This document shows positions 2,581-62,816 of a stretch of 64,000 nt of DNA, piece by piece. The translations under genes were made by a program, and so were the position numbers. The stretch is from Chiloscyllium plagiosum (taxonomy: Eukaryota): contig NC_057718.1 of NCBI RefSeq assembly GCF_004010195.1, positions 44,180,949 to 44,244,948 on the forward strand, written 5' to 3'. A model generated the notes under the pieces. The model ran no database searches and had not been told where the DNA came from. It saw only the letters and a list, made by a program, of their open reading frames with translations. How positions within the stretch are numbered: the first letter of the stretch is position 1; the number at the start of each line of letters is the position of its first letter.

Positions 2581-2582
2581 CA

Positions 2583-4045: not shown

Positions 4046-4089
4046 AGTATAAAAATGAATGGTGCTTGTCACTGTCAGGTTGCTGTGAA

Positions 4090-6246: not shown

Positions 6247-6400
6247 GCATTATCATACATTACATTGTTCTACGCGATGGGACTGTTTGTTTTTGTGGGA
6301 CAGGCTTCTGTTTCACGGACACTGGTGGCATTCAGCCATACCAGGAATACACCTAGAACTGAGAGCTTGCACAATTGCTCAGTGTGCAGATAGCAGCAAG
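6247..6400 (+). pseudogene. Usherin-like exon remnant (about human exon 54)
   Basis: CAG acceptor. Reads GIIIHYIVLRDGTVCFCGTGFCFTDTGGIQPYQEYT, then a 1-nt deletion (about 6354), then ELRACTIAQCADSSK. Recalled human: GPIIYYILLRNGIERFRGTSLSFSDKEGIQPFQEYSYQLKACTVAGCATSSK. Donor is GA, not GT. Confidence 0.9.
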
Positions 6401-7870
6401 GAGGGTGTGCCACATGGAACACTTTGAAGGTCTGATAAACTGTGCATTACATCTGGTAATTTAATATATTATTATTTATCAATAATAATATAGTTCCTTC
6501 CTTTCTGCTATCTTAAAGCCACATACCAATTTACATTTCTTCCCTTCCCTGCATCATAAATATACTAACACTTCTTGCATTATTCCCTACACTATTTCAA
6601 TTTTTCCAGTTCAAAATTAGGAACACCTTAATTCACGCTCGGACTGGATTTTCACAGATACAGATGTGTTCAAAACTCACAGTCGGGATCCAATCCTGAG
6701 ATTCCAAGACCTATTCCAGCAATTTTCATTGGTGCATATGAAGTGTGTACTCCACTTCGTTAAAGGGCCAGGCATTTCCTAATCTTTCCTCATCCTTTCT
6801 CACCCCAACACCCACACAACCACTACTATTGCCTCCACAATTTTCTCCACCATTCATGGTTCTTGGGCCCTAGGATGAGTCTTGAACCAAATTGCATTCA
6901 ATAACATTTTCAAAGATATGCTCTAAAGATCAGGCCCACAACCTCAGCTATTCCCTATGCTCCCCCGTACTCTTCATGCTGAATTAATAGATGCTGAGGC
7001 TCCCCTGCCACTCCCATGACCCCCCAAATTCTCCATGCTAACCTGTTTCAAATTCACACCCCCTAAGACTTCATTTCATAATATTATTTGCTGACAACTA
7101 CCTTTAAACCCATTAATTGGTGCTTAAATGATAAGGCACAAATTGAACATGTGCCTTACTAGCAGCAAATAAACATGTCCACTGATGAAATTGTCAGGAA
7201 TTGACAGCTTAGCCATTCCATCTCACATTTGAAGATATTCCTCAATCTTATTGCCACCGAAGATAAATAACATTTCTCTTAATGCTGTCTTACATTTTGT
7301 TTCCTCTTCCCTTGATTTTGAAATAATGCTTATTTTCAAACAAAGAACTGAAACATCATATTTCTACCCTTCCACATCCAAGTTTTCTGATGAAATAAAC
7401 ATGATGTGCTTGTTGTGTAGAAGTCCACACTCTGAAATATTGACATGGACATTGGCTGTCAATAACAGAGACAGCAAACATAATTGCTCACACTACAAAT
7501 CACCACCACTCCCAAGCCTTCCATTCTCCATGTAACATCTCAATGTCAACTCATCCACTGACAGCTACTTCCCGTGGTCTTTCATATTCTCCATGTCAAT
7601 GAAATGCTAACTTCAAGTAGATGGTGGGCAAAGGGTGAGAAGTGAAGTCCTACTTTAGTTACGTTTGGGATAAAGTCCCAGTCAACTGAGGTGGGCCATC
7701 TAACCAGCCTGTGTCAGCATTGCTCACTTCTGTGGCCAGCTAGGATCTGTTTTCAGTATCAGCAGACTCGACTGTATCCCACACCTGCCTGCCCACTAAC
7801 TTTACCTTAAAAGGAGCATTGCGTATGACTGGGAAATTTAAACTGCGCTGGGCCTGCCAAATCAGGAAAT

Positions 7871-8201
7871 GTCATAGAACCCCTAGTGTGGAGACAGGCC
7901 CTTTGGCCCAACAAGTCCACACTGACCCTCTGAAGGGTAACCCACCAAGATGAATTCCCCTGCCCTATTATCCTATATTTACCCCTGACTAATGCACCTA
8001 ACCTGCACATCCTTGAACTCAATGGGCAATTTAGCATGCCAATGTACCTAACCTGCACATCTTTGGGTTGTGGGAGGGAACCAGAGCACCCGGAGGAAAC
8101 CCACACAGACACGTAGAGAATGTGCAAAGTTCACACAGACAGTTGCCTGAGGCTGGAATCGAACCTGAGTCCCTGGTGCTGTGAGGCAGCACTGTGTCGC
8201 C
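7871..8201 (-). mobile_element. HE1-type (V-SINE) SINE
   Basis: Reverse complement of the 17749-18072 element (V-domain GTGGGTTTCCTCCGGGTGCTC, CR1-like tail); head partly deleted. Confidence 0.9.
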
Positions 8202-8799
8202 TCTGACTCGAGTTATTCAGCTCAGTATCTAAAATCTGGACCTATGTCTTCTTGTGTGTCCTTGTGTGTTTTAAACCCAAGCTTGACAACACATCATCAT
8301 CAATTCTCAGTTTATCTCATTCAACTCCTCTGTTCTCTTCACCCTTTGCCTCTAAATTAGTATCTCAATTTGAAAGAAAGTCAGCCCACCTACAATTTCA
8401 AAATAAATATGCTGTCATGTGTGGAAATTGTAAATATGATCAAAAAATGTGTTTTGAAACAACAAAATAGAAGTTGTGTCTTATCAATGTAACATCAAAT
8501 GTGTTTCACAAACATAAAAGGTCATTAATCTGAAGTGTTAAACATCATTTTTCTCTCTCCAGATTCTGCCTGACATGCTGAGGATTTCCATCATCTTCTG
8601 TTTCTATTGTCTTTCAACTATTGACTTTTTGGATTCTCATATGACTTCTGCATGGCTGTTAATGAATATATCCAGGGAAATCATGAACATGACACTCATT
8701 CAGAATGTTTTGTATGAGTTCATGAGTTTATATTCTGGTACATTAACTGATGGTGCGTGATAATTGATAACTGCTGTCAAACTTCTTCTCACGTCATAG

Positions 8800-8998
8800 G
8801 TGGGTGTAGCAACTTTCTAAGGAGTCCCTGAAAGTTTCTACTCTCCAACAGTGGTTGTCTTCAATGCAACTGCTATACAGCTTTTGATGAGATCTCCAGC
8901 TAAGTTTAAAGGTGTAATACATAAGAGCCACATCCACCAGACTGAAACATGACTGATCTATACAGACACAACTAATAGGATGAAGTTTATTGCAGTAA
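8800..8998 (+). pseudogene. Usherin-like exon remnant (about human exon 55)
   Basis: AG/GT bounded, 199 nt: VGVATF*GVPESFYSPTVVVFNATAIQLLMRSPAKFKGVIHKSHIHQTET*LIYTDTTNRMKFIAV versus human VVAATTQGVPESILPP...GLIHTDTTDRRQHTVT. TAA at 8818, TGA at 8950, FN3 Trp lost. Confidence 0.88.
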
Positions 8999-11900
8999 GT
9001 ATAGAATGTCAGGATGTTTAATGGCTAACAATCCAAACTATCTTTTGAATTCTTAGGTTTAAAGTCTAGCAATCCAATTGTATGGAGTAGTGGCATACTA
9101 TAGGATTGAGTAAGTGTTTGTGAGAGTGGAAGAAGCATGTATGTACTTACTTTTTCTGATTCATACTTTCCATTGAAGTATCTCCAGGCTTATGCAGATA
9201 AATTAAAGGGCTATTTATTGGGATAAGTTTGCTTTTTCCCATCCTGCATACAAGCACACAAACTCATACCTGAACGCACATTTAACAGTAATAGATATTA
9301 ATGTGCCAGAAACTTCAGTTCGAAAAAATTTGCTTAAAGCTTTAGCCTGTTTGGATTGCTCCCTTTCTGATCAAAATTTACTCTGTTTACTACAACTTTG
9401 TTATACTAGGCTTCTAAGCAAACTGCTAAACTCAGTTCCCCATGTGAATTTTGTAATTTTCGAAACTACAAACGCGCAATGCACTTAATTAAGATATTTG
9501 ATCAAATTTCCAGGAACTTTTTAAAGGAATATAAAAGGGTGAAAACGTTAATTTTGATTTATTAGCTGCATTTAAATAAATTTGAATGGTAACCTTGTAA
9601 TGTTAGTTTATTAAAATGCAGAAAACCCACTATATCCCTTAAGGGTTACAAACAGGGAGATAAAAGTGCAATCTGTTTGAAGTATGACCTCCGGTAATTG
9701 CCATACTTTACAGACACTTACTTATTTTCCATAAACATCCCATATATTTTGCTGCTGTCAACCACAAGTGAATTACGTGCACATATTTTTCACATGCAGA
9801 TAGGTAAAATGTAACTTTTTGCCTTTTGAAGGTTTTAAACAGTTGTCGTAAAATAGTGGATTGTTTCTTTAATCTTTTTCATCATTGTAATATGAGCATC
9901 ATTTGAAATATTGGTATAAATGGCTTGTAATCCAGTAAATCAATGTACATTTCCTCTGGCATGATTTCTCTTTTTTTTTGGCTGCTGTGAAGTGTTTTCT
10001 GACAGCTTATTTTTAATTACATCTGAGCCTAAGAAACCTGATCTTATAAAGTGTTTCAGGGGGAAAGGGCAGAGTGAGCAGACATGCCATGTGAAATCCA
10101 GAAGTCATTCATAATTCTCTTAAGACAAAAAAGCATTAAGTAATTGAGGACAGGAAGTTCTCACTTAATTATTTAGGGGTGTTATCAATGCTTTAAGTAA
10201 ACTGAAGCATTTTCTACTGTCTCAACGAGCATAATACCTTTGGGACATGGACAGCAGCCATCATCTTCTCATGTTCTTTAATGCAAATAGCAAATGGCAG
10301 CTTGTCAATATCGGACCTTTTTATATCATTTATTACTGAACACTTCCAGTATCCTGTAAAAAACAATTTAGATGACAGTTATGGCATTGTTTCACTTTGT
10401 GTTATCAGTATTTAACAAATGGGCCAACTAATACTCCAAAGGAGAATTGCAATCATCATTTGTTTTTGATGCTGCTGGAAGAAAGGCTGATACTGCCCCC
10501 TTCAGTTCAACTCCCTTCACAAATATTAAAAGGGGACATCACAATCCTGAAAACTGTGGTTCATTTAAGCTTTTTTAAATGCATTGCTTTTGCAAAAATA
10601 TAACATGATATTGAATTACCTTCTCATCATGCATTACCTTCTCATCATGCATTCTGACAAAAAAAAATGCTTGATGTAGCTTTGGATTCTTTTTCCATTA
10701 ATGGAAGAATAAAAATATTGCCGTGAAGCTGATAACCTTGCATTTTCAAAACAGTCAAAATGCATTTTCTTGTAATTTTGTAGGTGCATGCAAAATCACC
10801 AGAAACCATAAAATATTAACTTTGTTCAATAAAATAAAAGCACAACAGATTTCAGTAGACAATAAACTTTGGATATGTTTCCCATTGTTCTCTGTTTTCT
10901 GATCAGAATGTATGTCTCTGAGGATGAAACTTGTGCCCAACACAGAGAGATTGTATTTCTGGTTGTCCAGTCTCTTTGAAGGTGTTCATTCAGATCTGGG
11001 GACCTGTTGCAACAAGAGAAATTGCACTGAGCTTCTGAAAATAAGTTTTGTTTTCTCTACAAAATTTTTGCAGCAAATATCTAACAACAAGAGGTCCTTA
11101 ACATACGACTCCAACAATCAGGATAAGCTATTGCTACCTGTGGGAAATACAATAAAGGCCACAGTTCCCTCATATTACCTTAGGTGTTCAAGTACATTTT
11201 AGGCAGCCCAACAGGAAATAGGAGCAAGTGAGTGTACTTGTAGAGCATACCCCATACTAAGGTTTGGTTCATGGGTGTCTCAAACTATCAAAATAATTGT
11301 GAGAAGCAGGTAGAAAATTTGCTCAGTATTTTCAGTAGCATTTGTTAAATGTATTGCATGGCTATGTTACAAACGCCTCTAAAAATAATGACCTACTGCT
11401 GCTTCAAAGCTGTTTTGCTCAACCTTGTGAAATGTGGAGTCTCTTTCTCCTGCATGGGATATTGCACTGAAGGGTAGAACCAAAATCTTCCGAATCAAAT
11501 TACCACAATTTTTAGAATGGAAGGGGACCTTGAATAGTGACTACTGTGCACATGGATATGGATTGACCTCCATAAGGGAATATAAGTGTTGTACTAGTGA
11601 GGATGAAGTGAGGCATGTGATCTGGTCTCCTGAAGAGATGTAAATTCTATCTTAACAATTACTCCCAGGTTTGAAAGGGTACCCTGTATAACTGCCATAT
11701 TGGTGAACAGTCAAATTTACAAAGGTATGCAGAAGAAGATACTTGCATATGTCTTCATTTGCTCTGAGATGCCCTTCCACTAATCCGACAACACTGATAG
11801 GATGAACACAAGAAGTTGTTACCAGGCGCCATTTAATGTTACTATTGCAGTTCCATTTTGGGCCTGATGAGACTTATTGGGACCAATTTTAACTCTGAGT

Positions 11901-16319: not shown

Positions 16320-19310
16320 TTTACTTCATTCAAGGGATGCAGCATTCATTGCCAGCACGAACATTAATTGCCCAGCCCTAGTTGTGATTGAGAATGTAAT
16401 GGTGAACTGGTGCTTTGAACTTCTACAGTCTATTTTGTATACATACACCTACAATGCTGTTAAAAAGGGAATTCCAGGATTTTGATCCAATGACACTGAA
16501 GGAACATTGATATATTTCCAAGTCAGAAGGATGAGTGGCTTGCAGGGGAACTTATTGGGGAACCTGCAGGTGGTGATATTCCCATATATTTGCTGCCATT
16601 GTCCTTCTAGCTGAAAGTGACTGTGGTTTTGTCAGGTGCTGTCTCAGGAATCTTGGTGAATTTCTGGAGTGCATCTTGTTGATGGTACACAACACAGTCA
16701 TTGAGCATTGGTAGTGGAGGGAGTGATGTTTTTGTGCATGCGGTGACAATCAAGTGGGCTGATTTGTTCTGCATGGTGTCAAGCTTCTTGAATGTTGTTG
16801 GTGCTGTGCTCATCCAGGCAAGTGGGGAGTATTCTATCTCATTCCCAACTCATGCCTGATAGTGAGTGGACAGACTTTGGGGAGACAAGAGGTGTGTATT
16901 CATAGCAGAATTCCTAGCCTCTGGTCTACTCTCGTAGCTACAGAACTTATATGGCAAGTCCAATTCAATTTCTGGTCAATGGTAACCACCAGGATATTTA
17001 TGGTGGGGCATTTGATGATGGTAATTTTACTGAATGTCAAGAAGTGACATCTTGCTGGAGATGATCATTGCCTGACACTTGCATAGTTAGAATGTTTTTT
17101 GTCATCTGACAGCCTGAGGTTGGATGCTGTCCAGGTTTCGTTGCATTTGTATATTGACTGCGAATGGTGCTGAACATCAGGCAATTATCAGCCAGCATCG
17201 TCATTTCTGATTTTATAATGGAGGAAAGGTCACGATGAAGTAGCTGAAGATGGTTGCATTTAGGATACTATCCTGAGGAACTCATGCAGAAATATTCTGG
17301 AACTGAAATTACGAACTTGCAACAACCACAACCACCGTCCTTTGTGTAAGGTGTGACTCCAGTCAGCAGACTTTTCCATGATTCTCATTGCCGCTAGTAT
17401 TTTTTTATGGCTGCTTGATGCCACATGTGGTCAAAAGTGGCTTTGATATCAAGGGCATTCACTGTTATCTGGCTTTTGGGGTTCAATTGTTCCATCTATG
17501 TTTAAACCAAGGGTGTAATGAGGACAGGAGTTGTTTAGACCTCGCCAAATCCAAACTGATTATTAATGAGCATGCCATTGCTAAGCATAAGCTACTTGAG
17601 AGCGCTGTTGATGACACCTTCCATCAAATTACTTAGGATGGACAGTGGGCTGATGTGATAATTGGCCATGTTGGATTTGTCCTGCTTTTTGTGTACAGGA
17701 CATACCATTGTTGGTTAGTTGCCAGGGTTGTAGCTATGCTGGAATGGTGGGCGGCACGGTGGCACAGTGGTTAGCACTGCTGCCTCACAGCGCCGGAGAC
17801 CCAGGTTCAATTCCCGCCTCAGGCGACTGACTGTGTGGAGTTTGCACATTCTCCCCGTGTCTGCGTGGGTTTCCTCCGGGTGCTCCGGTTTCCTCCCACA
17901 GTCCAAAGATGTGCAGGTCAGGTGAATTGGCCATACTAAATTGCCCGTAGTGTTAGGTAAGGGGTAAATGTAGGGGTATGGGTGGGTTGCGCTTCGGCGG
18001 GGCGGTGTGGACTTGTTGGGCCGAAGGGCCTGTTTCCACACTGTAAGTAATCTAAAATCTAAGTAATCTAAAGAACAGTTTAGCTAGGGGTATGGCAAGT
18101 TCTTCAGTGTTATTGCCAAATGTGGTCAGCACACATAACTTTTGCAGTATCCAGTGCCTTCAGCTGTTTCTTCCCATTATGTGATTGAATTGAATTGGCT
18201 GAGGATGATCATCCACTCGGCATTTCTAGCTGTAGATTGTTGCAAATGCTTCAAATGTATCAATTGCACTAAAATTCTGAGTGACTCTGTCATCTGGATG
18301 GGGATATTTGTGGAGCTCTTCCTCCACTGAGTTTGTAACTTGTCCATCAATATTCACACCTGGATATGGCAAAACAACAGAGTTTAAATCTGTTGTGGAA
18401 TTGCTTAATCCAGTCTATCACATGCTGCTTACACGGTTTAGCATGTAAGTAGTCCTGTGTTGTAGCTTCACCAGCTTGACACCTCATTTTTAAGTATGCC
18501 TGGTGCTATACCTTGCTAGCACTCCTTATTGAACTAGGATTGATCATCAGGTTTAATGATAATGATAATGTGGGTTATATGATGGGTCATGTGATTGCAG
18601 ATTATTTTTGAGCACAATTCTATTCTGGCTGATGGCACTCAGTGTTGAGTTGCTAGATCTATTTGAAATTTGCTCCATTTAGCACAGTGATAGAATCATG
18701 ATACATGATGGAGGGCATTCTCAAGGTGGAGGCAGGATTTCATCTCCACAAAGACTGTGCGGTGGTCTCTCCAACCAATACTGTCATGGGGAGATATGTC
18801 TGCAGCAAGCAAGTAAGTGAGGACGATATCATATGTTTTTCCCATATGTTGCTTCCTACACCACCGCAGATGACCAGCTATGTCCTTTAGGACTCGACCA
18901 GCTCAGTCAGTAATCATGCTGCTGAGGCACTCTACATCATGGACATTGATGAGGCCCACCTTTTGTGTCCAATGCCACACACAGCACTTCCTTCAAGTGC
19001 TTTTCAAAATGGCAGACAACTAATTCATCAGCCAAAGGTAGGATAGAGGAGGCACATGGTTATCAGCAGGAAATCTCCTTGCCATGTTTAACCTAATGTC
19101 ATTAAGATTTGATTGGATCTGAATTTAATGTTGAGGGCTTCTTGCATATCCCATGGTCTTTGTAGAATTGTGTTGCCACCTCTGTAAAGTTTGCCCTACC
19201 TGGGACAGGAAAGGACCCAGAGGTAGTGATTTTGTTGTCTGGATATTGTCTGTAAGTTACAATTCCTTGAGTTTGATTACGTCAGCTTGTTACTTAATCT
19301 GTGTCTTTGA
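16320..19310 (-). mobile_element. Old CR1/L2-like LINE, near-full ORF2, interrupted by an HE1 SINE
   Basis: Minus-strand WMSTAPTTFKKLDTMQNKSAHLI, LDIKATFDHMWH (RT motif, about 17420-17455), endonuclease-like 5' part near 19250, 3' tail GGGCTGGGCAATTAATG. Heavily mutated. Confidence 0.75.
17749..18072 (+). mobile_element. HE1-type V-SINE, young full-length copy
   Basis: tRNA-derived head (GGCACAGTGGTTAG A-box, GGTTCAATTCCC B-box), V-domain, tail GGGCCGAAGGGCCTGTTTCCACACTGTAAGTAATCTAA. CpGs retained. Confidence 0.95.
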
Positions 19311-22618: not shown

Positions 22619-23985
22619 TGCTGAGATATTTGTATTATCAATAGTCACAGGTGAGGGGCCGGAAGACTGGAGGTTGGCAAACGTGGTGCCACTGTTTAAG
22701 AAGGGCAGTAAAGACAAGCCAGGGAACTATAGACCGTTGAGCCTGACCACAGTGGTGGGCAAGTTGTTGGAGGGAATCCTGAGGGACAGGATGTACATGT
22801 ATTTGGAAAGGCAAGGACTGATTAGGGATAGTCAACATGGCTTTGTGCATGGGAAATCATGTCTCACAAACTTGATTGAGTTTTTTGAAGAAGTAACAAA
22901 GAAGTTTGATGAGGGCAGAGCAGTAGATGTGATTTATATGGACTTCAGTAAGGCGTTTGACAAGGTTCCCCATGGGAGACTGATTAACAAGGTTAGATCT
23001 CATGGAATACAGGGAGAACTAGCCATTTGGATACAGAACTGGCTCAAAGGTAGAAGANNNNNNNNNNNNNNNNNNNNNNNNNNNNNNNNNNNNNNNNNNN
23101 NNNNNNNNNNNNNNNNNNNNNNNNNNNNNNNNNNNNNNNNNNNNNNNNNNNNNNNNNNNNNNNNNNNNNNNNNNNNNNNNNNNNNNNNNNNNNNNNNNNN
23201 NNNNNNNNNNNNNNNNNNNNNNNNNNNNNNNNNNNNNNNNNNNNNNNNNNNNNNNNNNNNNNNNNNNNNNNNNNNNNNNNNNNNNNNNNNNNNNNNNNNN
23301 NNNNNNNNNNNNNNNNNNNNNNNNNNNNNNNNNNNNNNNNNNNNNNNNNNNNNNNNNNNNNNNNNNNNNNNNNNNNNNNNNNNNNNNNNNNNNNNNNNNN
23401 NNNNNNNNNNNNNNNNNNNNNNNNNNNNNNNNNNNNNNNNNNNNNNNNNNNNNNNNNNNNNNNNNNNNNNNNNNNNNNNNNNNNNNNNNNNNNNNNNNNN
23501 NNNNNNNNNNNNNNNNNNNNNNNNNNNNNNNNNNNNNNNNNNNNNNNNNNNNNNNNNNNNNNNNNNNNNNNNNNNNNNNNNNNNNNNNNNNNNNNNNNNN
23601 NNNNNNNNNNNNNNNNNNNNNNNNNNNNNNNNNNNGGGGCATGGATAGGATAAATAGACAAAGTCTTTTCCCTGGGGTCGGGGAGTCCAGAACTAGAGGG
23701 CATATGTTTAGGGTGAGAGGGGAAAGACATAAAAGAGACCTAAGGGGCAACTTTTTCACATAGAGAGTGGTGCGTGTATGGAATGAGCTGCCAGAGGATG
23801 TGTTGGAGGCTGATACAATTGCAACATTTAAGAGGAATTTGGATGGGTATATGAATAGAAAGGGTTTGTAGGGATATGGGCTGGGTGCTGGCAGGTGGGA
23901 CTAGATTGGGTTGGGATATCTGGTCGGCATGGACAGGTTGGACTGAAGGGTCTGTTTCCAGGCTGTAGATCTCTCTGACTCTATG
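22619..23985 (+). mobile_element. CR1-clade (HER1-like) LINE, 5'-truncated, spanning an assembly gap
   Basis: Open RT N-half (EDWRLANVVPLFKKG...DFSKAFDKVPH); after the gap, ORF2 C-terminus and a 3' tail ending CTCTGACTCTATG. Same subfamily as 1-758. Confidence 0.95.
23058..23635. other. Assembly gap (578 N)
   Basis: Run of n. Confidence 1.
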
Positions 23986-30657: not shown

Positions 30658-32550
30658 ATTCATAGAATCATAGAATTATACAGCACAGAAACAGACCCTC
30701 TGGTCCAACTCATCCACATGAACCAGATATGCTAATCCAATTTGTCAGCATTTGGCCAATATCCATGTAAACCCTTCCTATTCATATACCCATCCAGATG
30801 CCTTTTAAGCATTGTAATTGTATCCACTTCAACATTTCCTTGGCAGCTCATTCCGTGCACGCACCACCCTCTGCACGAAAAGGTTACCTCTCAACTTAAA
30901 TCTATGCCCTTTACTTTTGTACTTCTTTACCCTCGGAAAAAAAGATCTTGGCTATTCATCCAATCCATGCACCTCATGATTTTATAAACCTGTATAAAGT
31001 CACCCTTCAGTCTCCAGGGAGGAAAGCTCCAGTGTCTTCAGCCCCCTCCAATCCAAACACCATCCTTGTAAACCTCTTCTGAACTTTTTCAAGTTTAACA
31101 ATAGCTTTCCTGTAGCAGGTAGGCCAGAATTGAACACAGTATTCTAAAAGGGGCCTCACTAATGTCCTGTACAACTGCAATATGAGTCCAATCCCTATAC
31201 TCAATGCACTGATCAATGAGCATGAGTGCCAAACCACCCTGTCTACTTGCGACTCCACTTTCAAGGAACTATGAACCTGCACCCCCAGGTCTTTGTTCAG
31301 CAACACTCCCCAGAGCCCTACCATTAAGTATATAAGTCCTTTCCTGCTCTGCCCTGGTTTGCCTTACCAAAACGCAGCATCTCACATTTACGTAAATTAA
31401 ACTCTATGTGCCAATCCTTGGCCTATTAGTCCATCTGATCAAGGTCCCATTTAACTTTGAAGTACCCTTCTTCACTGTCCATACAAATCCAATTTTGGTA
31501 TCATCTGCAATGTTACTAACCATCCAAATCATTTATATAAATGATATAAACCAGTAGACCCAGCACCGATCTTTGTGGCACAGCACTGGTCACAGACCTC
31601 CAGTCCGAAAAACAATCCTCTACCACCACTCTCTGTCTCCTATCTCCAATTGATTAGCTCTCCTTGGATTCCAAGTGACCTAACCTTGCTAACCAATCTA
31701 CCATGCAGAACCTTGCTGAATACCTTACGGAAATCCATGTAGACAAAGTCTACTGCTCTTCCTTCATCAATCTTCTTTGTGACCTCTTCAAAAACTCAAT
31801 TAAATTAGTCAGATATGATTTCCCAAGCATAAAGCCGAGTTGGCTATCCTTAACCAGCCCTTGCCTTTCCAAGTGCACATAAATCCTGTCCCTCAGAATT
31901 CCACTCCAACAACCTACCCACCTCTGATGTCAGGCTCACCGGTCTGTAGTTCCCTGACTTTTCCTCATCACCTTTCTTAAATAATGGCACCACATTACCC
32001 ACCTCAGTCTTCCTCACCCATGACTGTAGACAATACATATATCTCATCAAAGGGCCCAGAAATCTCTTCCTTAGCTTCCCACGAAGCTTTGGAATACACC
32101 TAATCAGGTCCCATGGATCTATCTGCTTTTATGCTTTTTAAGACCTCCTGAACCTGCTCGTCTGTAATATGGACACTTTTTAAGACATAGGAGAAAGTGA
32201 GGACTGCAGATCTTGGAGAGTCAAACATGAAAAGGGCAGCGCTGGAAAAGCACAGCAGGTAGGGCAGCATCTGAGGAGCAGGACATCAGTAGTTATTTCC
32301 CCAAGTTCCTTATCTTCCATGTCCTTGTTCACAGTAAATACTAACATGAAATATTCATTTGGTATCTCACTCATCTCCTGTGGTTCCAGACATAGAGGCC
32401 ACATTGATCTTTAAGGAGCCCTATTCACTCCCTAATTACTCTTTTGTTTCCTTGACCCCAGCTGCCAATGCCTGACATATGCTTCCTTCTTTTCTTGACC
32501 TGAGCCTCAATTTTTTGAGCCATCCAACATTCCCTGCACCTACCAGCCTT
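30658..32550 (-). mobile_element. CR1 LINE (RT to 3' end), interrupted by a Penelope-like terminal fragment at about 32189-32281
   Basis: VVPLFKKGDEEKSGNYRPVSLTS and [17 protein letters not shown] motifs, (ATTCTATG)n tail. The insert is flanked by GACAT on both sides. Confidence 0.9.
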
Positions 32551-34404: not shown

Positions 34405-35060
34405 GATAGACAATAGACAATAGGTGCAGGAGTAGGCCATTCAGCCCTTCGAGCCTGCACCGCCATTCAACATGATCATGGCTGATCATTCCTAATCAAT
34501 ATCCTGTTCCTGCCTTATCTCCATAACCCTTGATTCCACTATCTTTGAGAGCTCTATCCAACTCTTTCTTAAATGAATCCAGAGACTGGGCTCTGGGGCA
34601 GAGCATTCCACACAGCCACCACTCTTTGGGTGAAGAAGTTTCTCCTCATCTCTGTCCTAAATGGTCTACCCCGTATTTTTAAGCTGTGTCCTCTGGTTCG
34701 GCACTCACCCATCAGCGGAAACATGTTTCCTGCTGCCAGAGTGTCCAATCCTTTCATAATCTTCTCCGTCTCAATCAGATCCCCTCTCAGTCTTCTAAAT
34801 TCAAGGGTATACAAGCCCAGTCGCTTCAGTCTTTCAGTGTAAGGTAATCCCGCCATTTCAGGAATTGACCTCGTGAACCTACGCTGCACTCCCTCAATAG
34901 CCAGAATGTCTTTCCTCAAATTTGGAGACCAGAACTGCACACAGTACTCCAGGTGTGGTCTCACCAGGGCCCTGTACAGCTGCAGAAGCACCTCTTTGCT
35001 TCTATACTCAATTCCTCTTGTTATGAAGGCCAGCATGCTATTAGCCTTCTTCACTACCTG
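34405..35060 (-). mobile_element. Young CR1 LINE 3' fragment (distinct subfamily)
   Basis: Long open ORF2 C-terminal frame ([41 protein letters not shown]...FTQRVVAVWNALP); (TTGTCTA)n tail. Confidence 0.95.
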
Positions 35061-35878
35061 ATTTAAAATTTGTTACAAATAGTCCTGACAGAAGTTCGAA
35101 GCAGGGAGAATAATATAATTTATACCACAGCACTTGGCTGCAAAGAGAAAAAGTAGCAAGTGTGAGGTGATAATTTAAACATTCAATGTGAAAACTGTCT
35201 AAAACTAAAACATTTTATTCATTGATGTTAGGGGAACAGAAATCATCCCCTAGGACCCGATGCACAAACATCAGTACACAAGTTCTTAGACATGCATTAC
35301 AGACATAATTTAACTTACATCAAACACATGTAGCTACTAAAACATAGAACATACCCATCAAGTTGTTAATCAAAGTAATTATTGTGTAAATGTTCCAATT
35401 AGAGTTTACCAGTACAAGGTGATCATTAATTATACGGTTTGGCAAAAGGCTCTAAACCCCAGGATATAAGTTAGATCAGGATATAGATGAATGCCACATC
35501 ATTCTCCTGCCCCAAACCCTGCCCTCGATCCCCACCATTCCCCCTTTACTTTAGTGGATTGGTTAAAATTCTGAAATCAGAATAACATTCCGTAAATGAT
35601 ATTGTGGTGCTGGCCACTCCCGATGCTTAGAGGACGCAAAATGATTCATGAAGATAAAACTTATGCAGAGAGGGAAGAATTTCTGTTCTCCCAATTATCT
35701 GTCATGGATTTGGCAGGAGATCAGAAGAAACACTTGAGAAGTGGCATAAACTGACTGTGAATGGGCAAATCTCTGGAAATTTTATGCATTTAATAATAAA
35801 AATCAATATTTAACTGTAATAAGATAAACATAAATGACTTTATATAAAGGACATGGATTGTCTCTTTGTTTGATACAG

Positions 35879-35986
35879 GTCTTCAGCCGCACACTGACCA
35901 CAGTGTCACAGTGATTGTGTGCACTTCTGCTGGAAGCAGCACAAGTCCATTTGCAACAGACCAGACTCTGCAAGCTTCTCCTGAAG
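35879..35986 (+). pseudogene. Usherin-like exon (about human exon 56), frame and splice sites intact
   Basis: cag|GT...GAAG|gtatga, 108 nt: LQPHTDHSVTVIVCTSAGSSTSPFATDQTLQASPEG versus human LQPYTNYSFTLTACTSAGCTSSEPFLGQTLQAAPEG. Confidence 0.92.
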
Positions 35987-36529
35987 GTATGAGAAATCAA
36001 TTGTATGAGTAAAATCATTCTTACGAGCAGTTTTCAAGTCTAGAACACAGTGCTACATAAACTCATTTTGCAGTTTTCATCCTGGTTCAGTATGTCAAAA
36101 TAAGGTCAAAACATTCCCCATATGGTATCTATGACATAACCATGTCAGTCTGACAAGCCTGGGTTTTGGTTGACTGAAAGGTGGCATGTACACGCTTTTT
36201 TTAAAGACATGCATTCACCTCCAACGTGCACAGTGGGAGATAGGATCAAGAAGAAACTAGGTAAGTAGAACAATTTAACCTTCATTTTACAGGGAGGAAC
36301 AGCTAAAAAGATAATTTAGGTTAGTTAGGAAGAAAAGTAAAGCAAAAGCTAAAAATGATAGGCCATATGGAGAAAAGAGTGAGCAACCACAAAAAATTGG
36401 GAATGTGAAGGACATTGTGAACAGAAATAAGGAGTATTTTAACATAAGAGTGATTCCAGCAAGAAAGCAAATTAATTTTCTGTCCATCAATGACAGAAGG
36501 ATGACTTTGACAATTTTAACCACTGGGCT

Positions 36530-37430
36530 GTACTTAAATGTCACACGTCTATTTTCAGTCAGGCGGATGAGCTTGCAGATTGTCTACCTGCTACTCCCAA
36601 TTGGTGTGAATTGGGTAACTGCCAACTTTAGATTCAAAGGCTGAAAAAGAATTTCCTGAGGTCAAGTGAATCAGGAGTAGGAGGGAAGTATCCAAGACAC
36701 AGCGGCTGCAATTATCCACTTGCTTGAATGATTGCAGCTCCAATAACATGCAAGATGCTTGACACCATACAGGACAAATCAATCCATTAGCACGCTGCCC
36801 ACCACCTTATATATTCACTATCTCCACCACTGGTGCACAGTCGCAGTACATACCACAATCAAGACGTACTATCTACAACATGCACAACGCTCTTTCAACG
36901 TAACAAGTGAGGACTGCATAGGGTGGAGATGAGAGTCGAAAAGTATGGCACTGGAAAAGCATACCTTATGCTCAAAATGTTGACTCTCCTGCTCCTTGGA
37001 TGCTGCCTGACCAGCTGTACTTTTCCAGTGCCGCACTTTTTGAAGCTGGAAAAACACAGCAGGTCAGGCAGCATCCAAGGAGCAAGCAAATCGACATTTA
37101 GGGCAGAAGCCTGCCACCAGGAATGATGAAGGGCTTATGCCCATGACCTGCTGTGTTTTTCCAGCAACACACTTTTTGGTTCCTTCAACTCAGCCTTCCA
37201 TGTCAGGATCCTTACCACTTGGAAGATCAAAGGCATCATGCATATAACACCCACAAGTTTTCCTCCAATCCACACAGTATCCTCATTTGGAAGTGAATTG
37301 TTATTGTCCTAGAAATGTCTTCCGTATAGCATTATGGATGTAGCTACACCAGATAAATTGTATGATTCAAGAAGGGGGACACACCCTAACTTTCCCAAGA
37401 GCAATTGGGAATAGGCAACAAATGTTTGCA
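36530..37430 (+). mobile_element. Old CR1/L2-like LINE 3' fragment (family of 16320-19310) with a nested Penelope-like palindrome at about 36903-37180
   Basis: PITCKMLDTIQDK motif and GCAATTGGGAATAGGCAA tail. Internal alternating-orientation copies of the GCTGGAAAAGCACAGC terminus. Confidence 0.7.
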
Positions 37431-38724
37431 ATAAACATTTTACAGGAAGGATTTTTTTTTTAAATTATCCTTGTGGGGCTACAGAAGCACTTTCTATGCC
37501 CCAAGTTATGGTAAATGACTGCAAATGCTGAAACTCAGTAGGTCTGGAAGCATTCTGTGGAGACATAAAAAGAGAAAATGTTTAGAATTTGATATGGTTT
37601 AGTTCACTGTCACTTCACTTCCAGGTCTGCCTACCTTGAAGAAGTTCTCACCTTCTTTCCAATGGGTTTTCTATTTTAATCATTCAGTGTGTTTATTCTC
37701 ATCTGCCTCTTATGTCAGATAAAATATTTGCTGAAACTTACTTTCAGAGTACAGCTTCTTCCTCTGTAAGCTGTTTGGTTCTAGCTTATCCCACAAGGAT
37801 TCCAGCTGAAGTTCCATCCTTATGTCTCTAACCCAACCAAGGTTACAGTTATCTCCAAAACATACATGCTCCTCAGACAGCTGCTCTCATATATCCTGGG
37901 GTCCACATTTAGTGCCATGTGCCACCACATGCATAAGCTTGACCTCTCTTTTCATCAGCACCCAGTCCCCTGTTCCATTTCATTCTTAGTCTCATCTGAT
38001 GCTTTCATAATTTTTTTTCTCTTCTTTTCAGCTGTTAAGGAATGGAGTCATGCCATGCTTCTCTCTCCATGGATACTGCCCGACTTGCTGAATTCTCCAT
38101 GTTTACTTCTTTACCTTTAGCTTCACAAAGGAATGTTTCTGACTAGCCTCAAGGAATTTTTATTCCTTCCTATAGGTGGTTAAACTGCCATAATTTGGCA
38201 AAAGAGCCATAGCAGCTTAATTCCTTCACCTAAGGTTAAATAGCACAGGAATAGGTTGTGAATGGTATAAATTCACAAGGCCATCTTTTGTCTTGTGAAA
38301 GGACCTCAGTTAGTCAGGTTTTCCATCAAAATCCACCCAAAGTTTTTTTTCAACAATTTTCAGTAACAATTGATTTACCTTTGTATATTTTAGTTCTGTA
38401 GAATTAGAATTAGAACAAGAAAACATATTTGATTTTTGAGTAATATTCTTAATCGACCATTAAAGCTCAATCAAAATGTGTGAATTTAAGAAGCAATATT
38501 TCAGATTGGCCAGTGGACAGGATTTCTCCAGCCTCAAAGTCAATCTACAGGTTAATTTTTAGAGATCATAAATCATGAAAAATTTCAACATGAGCAAAAT
38601 GGTCCTTTTCTGCACAAACGTAATGCAAATACAGGTTTCAGAGATTCAGTCATAAAATACTTAATGTACTGTGAACAAAATAATGCTTCCTCAGCAAACA
38701 AACTTGTCTTTATTTTTCTTGTAG

Positions 38725-38908
38725 GTATTTGGCCAAACCCTTATCATATTACTGTAAGCCCCAACATTGTGGAACTCTATTGGACAGTGCCAATAAAGCC
38801 AAATGGGTTCACCATTCAATACTATTTACTCCACAATGATACAGTCATCTTCACTGGTGGCAGTGTATGTCTCAACCATATAGATACTGGCTTTCAGCCC
38901 AACACAAG
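38725..38908 (+). pseudogene. Usherin-like exon (about human exon 57), frame and splice sites intact
   Basis: Pyrimidine tract + tag| ... AG|gtaaaa, 184 nt: GIWPNPYHITVSPNIVELYWTVPIKPNGFTIQYYLLHNDTVIFTGGSVCLNHIDTGFQPNTR versus human GVWVTPRHIIINSTTVELYWSLPEKPNGLVSQYQLSRNGNLLFLGGSEEQNFTDKNLEPNSR. Confidence 0.93.
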
Positions 38909-42453: not shown

Positions 42454-42609
42454 ATAAGTGTATAGATTGCAGACCAACACAAGAGGAGGGAGTGGTAGAA
42501 GTGAAATTTATGTTGTTCAAACAGCAGCATCAATGCCAGAGAAAATTCTAGTTCCATATAATGTCACAGTAGCATCCATCTTCATTGTTCACAGCCTGGA
42601 CTCCACCTG
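42454..42609 (+). pseudogene. Usherin-like exon remnant (about human exon 58)
   Basis: tag|A TAA (stop at 42455, where human has Y), then VYRLQTNTRGGSGRSEIYVVQTAASMPEKILVPYNVTVA, a frameshift near 42575, then PSSLFTAWTPP. Recalled human: YTYKLEVKTGGGSSASDDYIVQTPMSTPEEIYPPYNITVIGPYSIFVAWIPPG. Confidence 0.9.
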
Positions 42610-45410: not shown

Positions 45411-45436
45411 AAGCAAACTATGTCGGATTAAGTCTA

Positions 45437-45612
45437 AAGATCACACAACACCAGGTTATAGTCCAACAAGTTTAGTTGGAATCACTAGTTTTTGAAGGAT
45501 GAAGAAGCAGCACTTCGAAAGCTAGTGCTTCCAAATAAACCTGTTAGACTATAACCTGGTGTTGTGTGATTTTTAACTTTGTCCATCCCAGTCCAACACC
45601 GGCTCCTCCAAA
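45437..45612. mobile_element. Palindromic Penelope-derived short element (family of 48175-48379), centre deleted
   Basis: ATCACACAACACCAGGTTATAGTC ... GACTATAACCTGGTGTTGTGTGAT inverted arms. Confidence 0.8.
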
Positions 45613-46499
45613 TTACATCAATTTAGTATGTGGCCTCATTAAGAGGGGAGCTCCCACATTAACAGGCAATAAGTGCGCAATTGAGAGATGATGCATGAAG
45701 AAAGGTGATCACTGAAAGCCAATCACACTGCCTTTTGGTTTCTTGTGGCACAGCAGTAGTATCCTGACCTTTGAACCAGGTTACTCAGGTTCAAATCCCA
45801 CCTGTTCCTACAAGTATGTCTTAACATTTCTGAGCAGGTTAATTAGAAAATATCCCACAGTGTTTGTAACCAACCCCAACACTCCCCGTTTGCTGACCCT
45901 TGTCCCCCAGGGGCTGTGTGGTGCTAACAACAATGAACAAGTGACAATCTCTCGCTGACATCTTTCAGGGTGAACTTTCCACTCCATGACAGCCTTGTTC
46001 ATCTGAGAGGCAAGTTAAGTGCCTAGTTACACCTAAACAGTGATATGATCCCAACTAATAGTACTTCTGGGTATATCTGAATCCAAAGTAAAACCTGGCC
46101 TGATAGAACCATATTTATTTATTTTAGTTAATGCGGTGGTCATTTATTGAAACATAGTCACACAAGGCTGCAAAGTTCCTTTAACCATAGAACAGAAGTT
46201 ATTACAAAACAGATGAAAACAAAAATAAGTTATATTAACATAGAACACAATTAGTAAAAAAAAAACATTTTAACACACTCTAACACAATCTATTTCCCAA
46301 AACAATTGCCTTACAGCAATTAAAATTCAGTGAGATTACCATTCTATATCAAATCTTGATGTAGTTGATTCTTTCCAATTCTGTCCTGTAAATTGCAAAG
46401 TCATCTTTCATTTATAATCACAAAATTAAGATATCAGACTTTCTCAACTTGTTGTAACTTGCAGATTTCTGCCCAAACACTCCTCATCTGAAAGTTATA

Positions 46500-47265: not shown

Positions 47266-48174
47266 GACATTTTATTCCTCACAAGTTGCACAAATTAAAT
47301 GTCTTTGCCCAGGTATCTCTGCTTTCCCTGAAGATTTCTGTACTCTTTCTTTTAAGAGAGACACTATGTTTTCTTCTGATGCAAGTGTGGTCTCCTCCAA
47401 ACTGCCCGAAACCTTTCAGTATCTGGATTTTCTAAGAAAATATCAATCCTTGATTATTCTGAATCAAAAGCAAGTTAATGTTTGCATCGAGGATTAGTAG
47501 TCCCTATGTTAGGTTACCATGATAATACCAATCTTCCATTAACACTCCAGGAGATCCCTGCTGTCTGATACAAGCTGGATTAAATCTCTGCTCTGAAAAA
47601 ACTGCCTGACCTACTAACTTATTTTTTGAGACCCTAAGAAAAATAACCAAACCAAAATGCCACTATTCTATAATACAAACTCTTCAAAATCATGTCAGAC
47701 ACATTTTATCACAATAATATTAAGTCTTCCAGACAGCAGCAAGGCGTGGGTTACATTGGTTCTCCAACTAGTGGGAGGACTCTGCCATAGATACTGCGTT
47801 CTTGCCTATGACTCTAATTTACTTTGAAATAATCTATGGTAGATGCCTTTTTTTTTATCAGGAATGCATGATAGAATTGCTCATAGGAAATTAATCCTTT
47901 CACAAGCACTGTTGCACAATAAAACTACAATAAAACCAATTAAACCACAATTTAAATAAAATTGGGTAAACGTTATGTTTATCATGATAAGGAGTTACAA
48001 TACTGAATAACGGAATATTCTCCCATATGTTTCATTCAATGGCAATACAGAAAAGTCCTAGAAAGCATGTGAACAAAGAGCATCCCTTAACATTAAATTC
48101 AGAACATTATCTCTATTGCACAAATGTGAACTTTTCCATTTTCTCCTTCTGCACCCTTTTGTCCTCTCTCTTGA

Positions 48175-48379
48175 TTTAGAGGTGCTGGTGTTGGACTGGG
48201 GTGTACAAAGTTAAAAATCACACAACACCAGGTTATAGTCCAACAGGTTGATTTGGAAGCACTAGCTTTCGGAGCGCTCTTCCTTCATCTACAACCACCT
48301 GATGAAGGAGCAGCGCTTTGAAAGCTAGTGCTTCCAAATCAACCTGTTGGACTATAACCTGGTGTTGTGTGATTTTTAA
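48175..48379. mobile_element. Palindromic Penelope-derived short element with 60-bp perfect arms
   Basis: 48211-48270 is the exact reverse complement of 48320-48379. Confidence 0.85.
48296..48330 (+). ncRNA. Minimal type I hammerhead ribozyme motif
   Basis: CAC-CUGAUGA-A-GGAGC agc GCUUU-GAA-AGCU-A-GUG. Stem I CAC/GUG, stem II with two G-U pairs, palindromic AGCU in place of stem III, predicted cleavage after CUA. Confidence 0.6.
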
Positions 48380-48855
48380 TGTTGTCTCTCTGAATGCGAT
48401 TTGATATGGCATTGACAAGTAGTGATAAGTTATAGCTTGTAGACTGATGTCATTGTTATAACTTAGAAAACTAAAGTGAAGGGGCAAAATAAAGACTGGA
48501 GGTCACTGCTAAGTTTGAAAACAAATAAGCGGGATGAAGGATAAAATACACTGTAATAGGTAATGCTCAGCTAGTACTATCCTTAGAGCTGCTAATGCAG
48601 CACCACCATCACCTTTATCAGAAGGTAGGCAGAATTCCTATATAAACAGACTATTCTCCACCCTTCTCAAGTCTGGTGACTGAATGGTAGTTGGTCTTGG
48701 GAATACTTCAGGCCCATAAAACCCTGCATAATGGAGCTGGGGAAAAAAGACTGAGAGAAAAAAAAAAGCAATTTTGAGTCCGGTTTGGAGATTCAGTTTA
48801 CTTTGATAACAGCACGATTGAATTTGTTTTGTACTTTTTTTTTCATCACTTTTAG

Positions 48856-49012
48856 TTGTTTTCAATATCAGAACATCTCACTTTTACAATGTTACTTTAA
48901 ATCTTGGGACTGCCCAAGCAATTATTTATCCCACTGGTCATAATCATTCCTTATTAGTGAAGAACTGAATCTATTTACAATGAAGAGATAAGAATTCAGA
49001 CATCTCAGCCAG
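48856..49012 (+). pseudogene. Usherin-like exon remnant (about human exon 59)
   Basis: ttttag| ... CCAG|gtaagg, 157 nt: VFNIRTSHFYNVTLNLGTAQAIIYPTGHNHSLLVKN / LNLFTM / EIRIQTSQPG, with two 1-nt deletions. Recalled human: ...YNVLLNDGSVTPLAFSVGHHQSTLLENLTPFTQYEIRIQACQNG. Confidence 0.8.
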
Positions 49013-53301: not shown

Positions 53302-53464
53302 GTGGTTGTGGAGCTGGTGAACGAACATACATAAAGACGGTGGAAGTATCAAGTCAATATCAACAGCCTCCTGTCCTAACAACAGTTAGTTTAGCAGTTG
53401 TGAAAGTCAAATGGCTTCTGCCTGAAAAGCTTAATGGAATTATCACAAATTAAACTATTTACAG
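53302..53464 (+). pseudogene. Usherin-like exon remnant (about human exon 60)
   Basis: 163 nt: GGCGAGERTYIKTVEVSSQYQQPPVLTTVSLAVVKVKWLLPEKLNGIITN*TIYR|gtaaaa versus human GSCGVSSRMFVKTPEAAPMDLNSPVLKALGSACIEIKWMPPEKPNGIIINYFIYR. Acceptor is AA instead of AG; TAA at 53451. Confidence 0.9.
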
Positions 53465-53621
53465 GTAAAAGTTTAACATGGTCATCGTTTTACTTTCATT
53501 GATATACTTTGCCCTAGAAGTTCCATTGCACTGTGTAAAATGGTTGCTTGCATGACAACCCCTGTCCACGATGCCTTCCCACAGAGGAGAGAGTGTGCAA
53601 GGTCAGCAATGCCTTTCCAAT

Positions 53622-54705
53622 CAGTTCTGAGGAATAGGATTTATGACTATTTGGCAAAGCATAGTGTGATTAAAGACAGTCAGCATGGCTTTGTGAGGGA
53701 CAAGTCATGCTTCACAAATCTTATTGAGTTCTTTGAGGAAGTGTCAAGACAGGTTGCGACGGTCGAGCAATGGATGTGGTGTATATGGACTTCAGCAAGG
53801 CATTTGATAGGGTTCCCCATGGTAGGCTCATTCATAAAGTCGGGAAGTATGGGATACAGGGAGACTGGTATCTGGATTCAGAATTGGCTGGCTGACAGAA
53901 GACAGAGAGTGGTTGTGGATGGAAAGTATTCTGCCTAGAGGTCAGTGTTGAGTGGGGTCCCACAGGGCTCTGTTCTTGGGGCTCTGCTCTTTGTAGTTTT
54001 TACAAATGACTTGGATGAGGAGGTTGAGGGGTGGGTTAGTAATTTAGCAGATGACACAAAGGTTAGAGGTGCTGTCGATATTATAGAGGGCTACTGCAGG
54101 CTGCAGCGTGACATAGATAGGATGCAGAGCTGGGCTGAGAAATGGCAGATGGAGTTCAACCTTGATAAATGTGAAATCATGCATTTTGGAAGGTTGAACT
54201 CAAAAGATGAATATAGGATTAAAGACAGGATTCATAGCAGTGTGGAAGAACAGAGTGATCTGTGTGTTCAAGTACATAGATTCCTCAAAGTTGCCACCCA
54301 AGTGGATAGGGTTATTAAGAAAGCATATGGTGTTTTGGCTTTCATTAACAGGAGGATCGAGTTTAAAAGCGTGAGGTTTTGCTGCAGCTCTACAAATCCC
54401 TGGTGAGACCACACTTGGAATATTGTGTCCAGTTCTGGTGGCCCTACTATAGGAAAGATACAGAGGCTTTGGAGAGGGTGCAAAGAAGGTTTACCAGGAT
54501 GCTGCCTGGACTGGAGGGCTTGCCTTATGAAGAAAAAGCTCAGACTTTTCTCTCTGGAGTAAAGGAGGAAGAGAGGAGACCTGATTGAGATATACAAAAT
54601 AATGAGAGGAATAGATAGAGTCAATAGCCATAGACTAGTCAATCCAGGGCAGGATTGACTGGTACAAGAAGTCATAGTTTGAAGATATTAGGAGGAATGT
54701 ATAAA
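53622..54705 (+). mobile_element. CR1 LINE RT fragment
   Basis: [39 protein letters not shown] and [13 protein letters not shown] motifs; several frameshifts. Confidence 0.95.
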
Positions 54706-59790: not shown

Positions 59791-62092
59791 ACAAATCTTT
59801 CCATAACACACATTGCTCAGACCCTGTAAGATGCTCTTTAAAACACCTAAAGAGAATCCACAGATGTGAGTTCGCAGAATTAACTGTAGTAAGCATGTTC
59901 ATATCTCATTCTTATCAGAACAAGGATCTTCTATTCTCTTCAATTTTCTACATTCTATTTCTCCTCGACACATCATTTTGTAATTCAGTTCTTTTCAATT
60001 TTGTGTTCTGAAAAGCAACAAGACAATGTGTAAGATTCCTAATGATCAAAAAAAAGCTGATGTCTTGGTTGACAAAAGGCCATTGGTTCCTTAAAGTCTG
60101 ATCTCTCCACTGTCCTAAGCCTCCCACTAAAACTTTTAATTTCTTTTTGAACGTCCCTAAAGTTTCTGCCTTTATTATGCTGCCTGGTAGATTGGGTGAT
60201 TATATAATCACTGAGTAAAGAAGTTCCTCGTTTCTATAATTAAGATATTTTTCACTAACTTTAAATTATGCCTTTTTTTGCTGCTTTCCTGACTCATATT
60301 GAAGTATTGCTCTGATCCTACATTATCTGTCTATTCAATATTTTGCATGCTAGGTTTTTGAATTAATTCCCTAACCTGGTACATGCTCTGCAAACTCAGT
60401 GTTGAAATATCCCTCTTCTCTGCATCTTTCAGAGAGCTATTGTATAGTTTTTGGACCGTGGTGAACACACTTAAAAATGTAAATTTGCCTATTACAAAAC
60501 AATAATTATTACTGCACCTTTCATATCACAGCCACTGAATTACTTAATGGAAGTGCAGTTGTTGTTAACAGCAGCTAATTTGAACTCAAAAGGGTTCTCT
60601 TTTTCTTAGTTTCATAAGGTACAATGCCCTGGGAGGGCATTAGCAATAATGAACTTCAAATGAACTGGTCCATGATTACGCTTGGCAAAGTATTGCGACG
60701 GTTTGTACTGTCTTCTGTAGTCTAGCTGATTGAAAAACCTTTATCGTCCATAATTTGGTGTATAGAATGGTATTACAGGTGGATATTCAGCCTGTTTGGC
60801 CCCATTATGAACAAAGCTTCAATAGCCACCTTGCCCTGATGGCTGCCACTGCACCTCAATACCTCAATCAACAGGGCTCTACAAAGACAGAAAGAACGAT
60901 GAGTGAACTGTTGTAATACATCAGTCAGGTAATTCAATTACAGAAACATTAAACATGAAAGTAGAAAAAGGTGTACACAAGAGAGAACTTTATGATATCT
61001 GCAGCTGTTCTTTTAGACTTGTATTGTTTACAGCCCATTCACTCTGAGTATACCAAAGTTAAATAAGTTTGTTCCTCCCTTTACTGATTTCCTTTTTCCT
61101 TTTCCTCCATTCATTTTCATTAACAATTGTGAATCTTAAACCTTGAATAATCATTTACCATTTTGTTTTGATGAGCTATTTGCTAAGAACTTGATAGATA
61201 TCGAAATCAAATCAAGTACATGTTTCCAACTCATTCTACATAGATTCGAGCTCAAACGTCACCTTTCATGTCCAGCCCCATGATTATTGCTATTTCCATA
61301 GCATGCAATGCTCTTTTAACTAGTGCTCTCACCACATCATCAAATCCACTCTTTCTACTTTGGGCAAGCATATATTTAGTCATGATTTTGCTGTACCACA
61401 GCAAAGATTCACTTTGTTTCAAGCTGAACCGGTGTTCTGTTCTTTTTTGTCTTTGACACATCTGATGGTTTAAAAATAACTTGTTTCCTTCTTCAAGAAC
61501 TGAAACTCAAACAACACTTGAATATCAGTGTACCTCTAAATCCCACATCTTTCATAAACTTCAAATCTTATTTCTTCTACTAATCATCCCTTGATGGATT
61601 TTCACTGCTCCCTTTGATCTTTCCCTCCATGACCCTGAACAATCTGTCCACAGCAGCGGATTCCATTTAATCCCACTATATCGCCACCTAAATAAGGTCT
61701 AGATGCACCTTTATGTCAAATTCTCCTTGCCTTTGACTTTGTGCCTTCTTTTTTTTGGGGGGTCACCATCATGTACCCTGCAGTCTTCATTTAATGGTCC
61801 CTTACCTGCTTTACTCTACTTCTAAAATAGCAAACAGCTTTGGGGTTTCTTCATTCTCCTCACACATTCCATCTCCCTCTGAACTTGCAATGCTGCAGTC
61901 CCTCATCTCTAACTGAGACATCACCATTATACTTGATAACAACAGGGGCATTGAAGCTCTCATCTCTAATCTGGTAAGATCAGATACCACAGGTAGAATT
62001 TAATGTTCCTCCTAGGAATTGGCTGGGAGACATATAGTTGGAAGGCTTGGGGTGGAGACTTCTTCTTCCCACCTCCGTCCTCTTAAAACAAA

Positions 62093-62816
62093 CTGCGCCC
62101 ACACCTCCTCCCTCACCTCCATCCAAGGCCCTAAAGGAGCCTTCCACATCCATCAAAGTTCTACCTGCACATCCACCAATATCATTTATTGTATCCGTTG
62201 CTCTCGATGCAGTCTCCTCTACATTAGGGAGACTGGACGCCTCCTTGCAGAGCGCTTTAGGGAACATCTCTGGGACACCCGCACCAATCAACCACACCGC
62301 CCTGTGGACCAACATTTCAACTCTCCCTCCCACTCTGCCGAGGACATGAAGGTCCTGGGCCTCCTTCACCGCCGCTCCCTGGAGGAAGAACGCCTCATCT
62401 TCTGCCTCGGAACACTTCAACCCCAGGGCATCAATGTGGACTTCAACCGTTTCCTCATTTCCCCTTGCCCCACCTCACCCCAGTTCCAAATCTCCAGCTC
62501 AGCACTGTCACTATGACTTGTCCAGCTGCCTATCTTCTTTTCCACCTATCCACTCCACCCCCCTCCCCCCTGACTCATCACCTTCATCCCCTTCCACACT
62601 CACCTATTGTACTCTATGCTACTTTCTCCCCACCCCCATCCTACTCTCATTTATCTCTCCACCCTTCAGGTTCTCTGCCTGTATTCCTGATGAAGGGCTT
62701 TTGCCCGAAACATCAATTTTACTGCTCCCTCAGATGCTGCCAAAGCTGCTATGCTTTTCCAGCACCACTCTAATCTAGACTCTGCTTTCCAGCATCTGCA
62801 GTCATTGTTTTTACCT
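62093..62816 (+). mobile_element. Penelope-like (Neptune-type) element 3' portion: GIY-YIG endonuclease plus terminal repeat
   Basis: TCTSTNIIYCIRCSRCSLLYIRETGRLLAERFREHL...QHFNSPSHS...EEERLIFCLGTLQPQGINVDF, then a pyrimidine tract and the terminus. Confidence 0.92.
62683..62717 (+). ncRNA. Minimal hammerhead ribozyme motif in a Penelope terminus (CpG-decayed)
   Basis: AUUC-CUGAUGA-A-GGGC uuuu GCCC-GAA-ACAU-C-AAU. Perfect stem II; the expected ACGU-C-GA has two CpG-type changes. Confidence 0.6.

Follow-up and report, generated by a model that had tools for sequence, protein, structure and literature searches.

Decayed usherin stalk exons in the carpet shark Chiloscyllium plagiosum point to loss of the long USH2A product and possible retention of its C-terminal end

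The stretch of Chiloscyllium plagiosum DNA analysed here (64,000 nucleotides, hereafter the window, in whose coordinates all positions are given) carries eight plus-strand exons of usherin between 759 and 53464, recovered by tblastn and frameshift-aware alignment and colinear with residues 3487–3921 of the usherin of the basking shark Cetorhinus maximus (P0003). We take these exons, E1 to E8, to be the counterparts of human USH2A exons 53–60, E1 being exon 53. E1 (759–935; FN3 residues 3487 to ~3545) contains stops at 801–803 and 912–914, lacks one nucleotide at its 3′ end and has AT at its donor position; no acceptor was identified for it, and its 5′ end adjoins a repeat that extends to ~725. 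E2 (6247–6400; residues 3546–3597) has a 1-nt frameshift near 6355 and a GA donor, and an 18-nt deletion at its end suggested by tblastn was rejected, the position being the end of the exon with its GA donor. E3 (8800–8994; residues 3598 to ~3663) is interrupted by stops at 8818–8820 and 8950–8952 and measures 195 nt up to its GT, compared with the 199 expected from the shark protein. E4 (35879–35986; 108 nt, residues 3664–3700) and E5 (38725–38908; 184 nt, residues 3700–3761) are open with intact AG and GT dinucleotides, and their lengths are presumably those of human exons 56 and 57. E6 (42454–42608; residues 3761–3813) has a stop at 42455–42457, a 2-nt frameshift near 42575 and a 3′ end short by 1 nt, E7 (48856–49012; residues 3814–3867) has 1-nt frameshifts near 48958 and 48981, and E8 (53302–53464; residues 3867–3921) has an AA acceptor and a stop at 53451–53453.

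Six of the eight exons are thus disabled, by 6 stops, 4 frameshifts within exons, deletions at the ends of 3 exons and loss of 3 splice dinucleotides, and this locus cannot encode a long usherin. The exons are separated by introns of 2.4–27 kb, on account of which a processed pseudogene was rejected. Identification of the open exons is firm: E4 aligns to P0003 residues 3665–3701 with 65% identity (tblastn E 4e-8) and E5 to residues 3700–3761 with 66% (E 5e-22), both without indels, whereas the reversed window, used as a control, gave a best match of only E 0.24. E5, the longer of the two, was searched with phmmer against 1.84 billion representatives and returned 220 matches at E ≤ 0.001, with usherins on top and the basking shark protein as the best match. 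Random scattering of the 13 counted lesions spared at least two of the eight exons in 47% of trials and two neighbouring exons in 16%; two open exons therefore need no special explanation, and E4 and E5 are chance survivors. Pfam gave a single match to their peptides, below threshold, and a PDB search weak generic FN3 matches only; a 60-aa exon peptide searched against longer proteins (up to 2,000 aa) gave two candidates, none of which was scored, and Rfam found no match in the window.

A LINE-like repeat at 72–758, close to the start of E1, matches 31521–32111 and 53648–54071, and E1 itself is without its first codons and acceptor, possibly through insertion of a repeat into the exon. The one tblastn match outside the eight exons (17827–17955, E 0.08) was rejected, as it lies within a SINE-like repeat. 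An assembly gap of 578 N (23058–23635) falls within the 27-kb intron that separates E3 from E4, two related palindromic, MITE-like elements of ~150–210 nt lie at 45430–45613 and 48174–48386, and eight short rows of tandem repeats are irrelevant to the USH2A question. Open reading frame fragments at 34569–35072 (minus strand), 53477–54403 (plus) and 62016–62513 (plus) resemble what we take to be LINE reverse transcriptase and a Penelope/GIY-YIG-like element.

Sequencing reads indicate that the lesions of E1–E3 are real, and suggest that they are shared and carried at a single locus. The stretch was present in 20 of 24 listed runs, from three organisms (A, B and C), and 4 of the 24 were compared over 740–9100 at 80% likeness, with 40 of 835 difference rows listed. 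Contigs of run X3 (organism A), possibly from the same study as the assembly, cover E1–E3 with 2, 6 and 3 other letters, respectively, and no gaps; the lesions of E1–E3 are therefore present in reads. That the lesions are errors of the assembly, which does contain the 578-N gap, is thereby refuted for these three exons, and 110 of 423 window codons carry residues found in none of six intact chondrichthyans, so that we give this explanation next to no credence overall. Per contig, organisms B and C diverge about 2–6% from the window. Organism B shows 13 differences over 740–1047, where E1 would need at least 23 changes to reach the residues of intact relatives, and organism C shows 22 over 8413–9100, where E3 would likewise need at least 23; a gap-free contig of organism B (8162–9100) shares the shortened end of E3. 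As the differences are fewer than the changes needed, both relatives would be largely decayed too, an argument made from difference counts and not from individual stops.

A harder alternative to separate is that a segmental duplicate, arising in galeomorph or carpet sharks, decayed here while an intact USH2A sits elsewhere in the genome, since the tree pattern described below would be the same as for loss of the orthologue. At exon position 6325, however, organisms A, B and C each yielded one contig at 80% likeness, exon bins had single-copy depth with no excess, and reads over 740–9100 showed no second USH2A copy, although one at around 80% identity or less could escape this comparison. About twice the depth at 6287 in run X3 (13.2 vs 6.6) is probably due to an allelic contig. 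Moreover, no full-length carpet-shark usherin appears among the 120 of 320 full-length matches listed, and four carpet-shark species have tail models of the kind discussed below. We thus consider a decayed duplicate quite unlikely, and prefer the reading that the window holds the only copy. An RNA run (X21), of which about 2 in 100 was read, had essentially no depth on the exons and carries no weight either way.

Conservation of the exon translations argues that the stalk exons have escaped purifying selection. In the window, 20 of 89 columns that are invariant among gnathostomes are altered, as are 110 of 334 variable columns, whereas six intact chondrichthyans alter 0–4 of 89–93 invariant columns. 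The open exons share in this: E4 and E5 together alter 4 of 20 gnathostome-invariant columns, and their divergence from sharks is that of their broken neighbours. By these invariant-column counts, the exons are in near-neutral decay. The first-pass annotation had remarked that E4 and E5 differ from human usherin at about half of their residues, and this holds against the marmoset (46 of 95 residues identical) and the polar bear (45 of 95), the mammal references in a protein set that did not include human usherin. Over the same columns, however, intact usherins match the marmoset at 55 of 95 (Cetorhinus), 51 of 95 (Scyliorhinus canicula) and 52 of 95 (Callorhinchus); intact shark usherins are almost as far from mammals, and the half-divergence of E4 and E5 therefore says little about paralogy.

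Paralogy was the first of the two options that the same annotation had raised, namely a second vertebrate usherin, an ancient duplicate (such as a whole-genome ohnolog) kept in cartilaginous fishes and then dead; it was assessed here as a 1R/2R ohnolog. Low identity to mammals despite conserved exon lengths would accord with it, as would the long branch of the window (0.39, compared with about 0.06–0.11 from the same node for intact sharks). Yet in a maximum-likelihood tree of the FN3 region (27 rows, LG+C20, with two outgroup branches long and meeting) the window exons nested within galeomorph sharks, as sister to Lamniformes plus Carcharhiniformes and inside Heterodontus and chimaera (support 95/93, 100/99 and 98/96). 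The intact shark usherins closest to the window are those of Cetorhinus maximus XP_078412490.1, Carcharodon carcharias XP_041063177.1, Scyliorhinus canicula XP_038667644.1, Mustelus asterias XP_078086591.1 and Heterodontus francisci XP_067901794.1; Pristiophorus (P0332) was excluded from the tree, its FN3 region being uncovered (29% identity) and its C-terminus truncated, which kept it out of the tail tree too. Identity of the exon translation, scored over 417 columns with X at breaks, followed the same order, from 68% with Lamniformes, 66% with Carcharhiniformes and 64% with Heterodontus to 57% with chimaera, 41–54% with bony vertebrates and 35% with lamprey. Of 22 shark-specific columns, 14 have the shark residue in the window, 3 that of chimaera or bony vertebrates and 5 some other residue. 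Forcing the window outside gnathostome USH2A, a constraint named before the tree was built, was rejected by the AU test (p=0.000246), as was placement outside chondrichthyan USH2A (p=0.000489); placement outside shark USH2A was weakly rejected (p=0.026), the latter two constraints having been picked after the tree. Long-branch artefacts draw sequences towards the outgroup and not into a shallow clade, which further counts against the ohnolog, and we regard it as virtually eliminated. On sequence comparison, the window locus is the true USH2A lineage. According to the available text of PMC7617844, USH2A is single-copy and lies beside ERRgamma and lamprey ERRa. Human USH2A sits between KCTD3 and ESRRG, and the window itself showed no flanking gene. 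The formal rejection of paralogy is new here.

Annotated proteins suggest what may remain of the gene. Among the 120 of 320 full-length matches listed (down to 1,367 bits, about 51% identity), five chondrichthyans held ranks 1–5 (Cetorhinus, S. canicula, Mustelus, Heterodontus and Callorhinchus), with no carpet shark or ray. A search of shorter proteins with the usherin tail gave 104 matches, all listed, among them tail-only models named usherin in four carpet sharks (C. plagiosum, 356 aa; C. punctatum, 195; Stegostoma, 219; Rhincodon, 134) and in rays (Hypanus, Hemitrygon, Mobula birostris and Narcine, 219–222; M. hypostoma, 83). The five ray species (P0334, P0419, P0420, P0421 and P0340) have tail-sized models only and no full-length match among those listed, making batoids a candidate for an independent loss of the long usherin, to judge from annotations; skates and sawfish had no match among the 120 of 320 full-length or the 104 tail matches. 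Tail-only models also occur in Polypterus and Erpetoichthys (273–297 aa, Polypterus isoform X1 being 297) and in the caecilians Rhinatrema and Geotrypetes (222–250 aa). Bichir, reedfish and the two caecilians (P0324, P0331, P0423, P0357, P0361 and P0377) are candidates for further losses, and a long form from bichirs or caecilians could sit among the 200 full-length matches outside the 120 listed; USH2A transcripts are reported from caecilian upper-jaw tissue in the accessible portion of PMC12771924. The tail-only entries of birds, Latimeria, Myotis, Pelodiscus and Silurus are probably pieces of genes that are intact; in Silurus, short and long forms are 100% identical. Tail-only models can thus be fragments of intact genes, and annotation alone is therefore no proof of loss; outside the window locus, the putative tail-only pattern draws on annotations.

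Within carpet sharks, the tail models have the appearance of a maintained protein. In a quick tail tree (47 rows, LG+G4, SH-aLRT only), the three of four carpet-shark tails included formed a clade (99) with short branches and a galeomorph position like that of the window, at 87–88% identity to Cetorhinus. The cytoplasmic tail of C. plagiosum matches that of Cetorhinus at 115 of 125 residues, on a par with intact sharks (116–117 of 125), compared with 68% for the window exons. The tail models of the four carpet sharks, and the four from rays that are full-length, keep the reading frame and the terminal DTQL motif, and the PDZ-binding motif of the usherin tail binds whirlin and PDZD7, according to the available part of PMC7317166. 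An opposing view is that the whole gene is dead, tail included, and that the tail models are late-decaying exons called as open reading frames. Start methionines vary by lineage, no model has an evident signal peptide, and C. plagiosum shows some erosion ahead of the helix, where two segments are identical at 75 of 91 and 55 of 70 positions (two intact sharks: 85–87 of 95 and 63 of 70), all of which would be expected of a decaying tail. The intact cytoplasmic part, the conserved frame and motif, and a teleost duplicate clade that retained the same portion weigh against it, and we judge a dead tail improbable, though less so than a decayed duplicate.

The teleost duplicate comprises eight short proteins (167–256 aa; P0373, P0378, P0380, P0399, P0400, P0402, P0403 and P0404) that form one clade (100) in the tail tree, apart from long teleost usherins; in Arapaima, Betta and Perca they share 36–50% identity with the long form found in that species. 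This clade is likely a tail-only copy from the teleost genome duplication, by sequence relationship, and a second usherin-derived gene thus probably exists in teleosts and not at the window locus. A 164-aa tail model of Acipenser oxyrinchus (P0375), 88% identical to the long usherin of that species (P0317) and on a contig of different size, is possibly a copy from sturgeon duplication. A short tail insert occurs in 16 of 24 short rows compared with 3 of 23 long rows, a difference that may reflect annotation choice; by its position, the insert would correspond to the inner-ear exon 71 described in the accessible text of PMC3207874.

We therefore consider it highly probable that the window holds eight decayed FN3-stalk exons of the shark orthologue of USH2A, likely its only copy, which yields no long usherin and was likely inactivated early in carpet-shark history. 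Four observations support the second option of the first-pass annotation, loss of the long USH2A itself: the lesions in the exons, their neutral decay, reads that show a single-copy pattern and, among the matches listed, no full-length carpet-shark usherin. Under the mechanism we propose, a single early lesion would have abolished the 5,200-residue isoform and left the ectodomain exons to drift neutrally thereafter; an early date in carpet sharks is suggested because the branch far exceeds the divergence among organisms A, B and C, and because whale and zebra shark likewise show tail models only. Selection may have continued to act on the terminal exons, which specify the transmembrane helix and the PDZ-binding tail, since these are likely expressed from an internal promoter, giving a small N-out membrane protein that would still scaffold whirlin/PDZD7-type partners. 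The 3′ end of USH2A accordingly appears to be retained, an outcome that the first-pass annotation had not anticipated, although we infer the link from window to tail protein; carpet sharks likely keep only a small membrane anchor and tail, and rays, some other fishes and amphibians possibly do so too.

The wider pattern offers a more surprising lead than the loss itself, and the added value of this analysis lies there. We speculate that an ancient C-terminal ‘mini-usherin’, made up of the helix and PDZ-binding tail and often the inner-ear exon, has an essential role of its own, and that the giant ectodomain is dispensable and disappeared several times (carpet sharks, stingrays and electric rays, bichirs, caecilians and one copy from the teleost genome duplication), each time sparing the same ~200–300 residues; on present sequences we would lean slightly against this idea. 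A shark lineage able to see and hear with no long usherin would offer a natural knockout in which to ask what ankle links and the photoreceptor periciliary complex require, and a tail kept alone and convergently would point to an overlooked short isoform and a minimal functional unit. Such a unit would bear on mini-gene therapy, the gene being too large for standard vectors, and on the interpretation of 3′ variants. A literature search, largely of open-access papers, found among the papers listed no report of shark USH2A loss, a tail-only isoform or a teleost duplicate, and the accessible portion of PMC13723404 held nothing on sharks bearing on the USH2A question.

Two isoforms of USH2A are described in the available text of PMC12047242: isoform A, an N-terminal product of 1,546 aa from 21 exons, and isoform B, of 5,202 aa from 72 exons, the product of the same gene that contains the exons found in the window. 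The candidate surviving product, being C-terminal and tail-only, is neither of these and is absent from the accessible part of PMC12047242. Set beside the long usherin of intact sharks, the window has the same FN3 repeats in the same order, carries the same lineage-specific residues and falls in the same clade, but at 64–68% identity to intact sharks, which are 84–97% identical among themselves, and with six of its eight exons disabled and no sign of constraint. A further parallel is with unitary pseudogenes, lineage-specific losses such as GULO and UOX in primates: like them, the locus is an intron-containing relic with multiple lesions and neutral drift, and likely with no functional copy. 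Unlike them, the loss of USH2A appears to be partial, as the 3′ exons for the transmembrane helix and tail appear to be preserved in carpet sharks.
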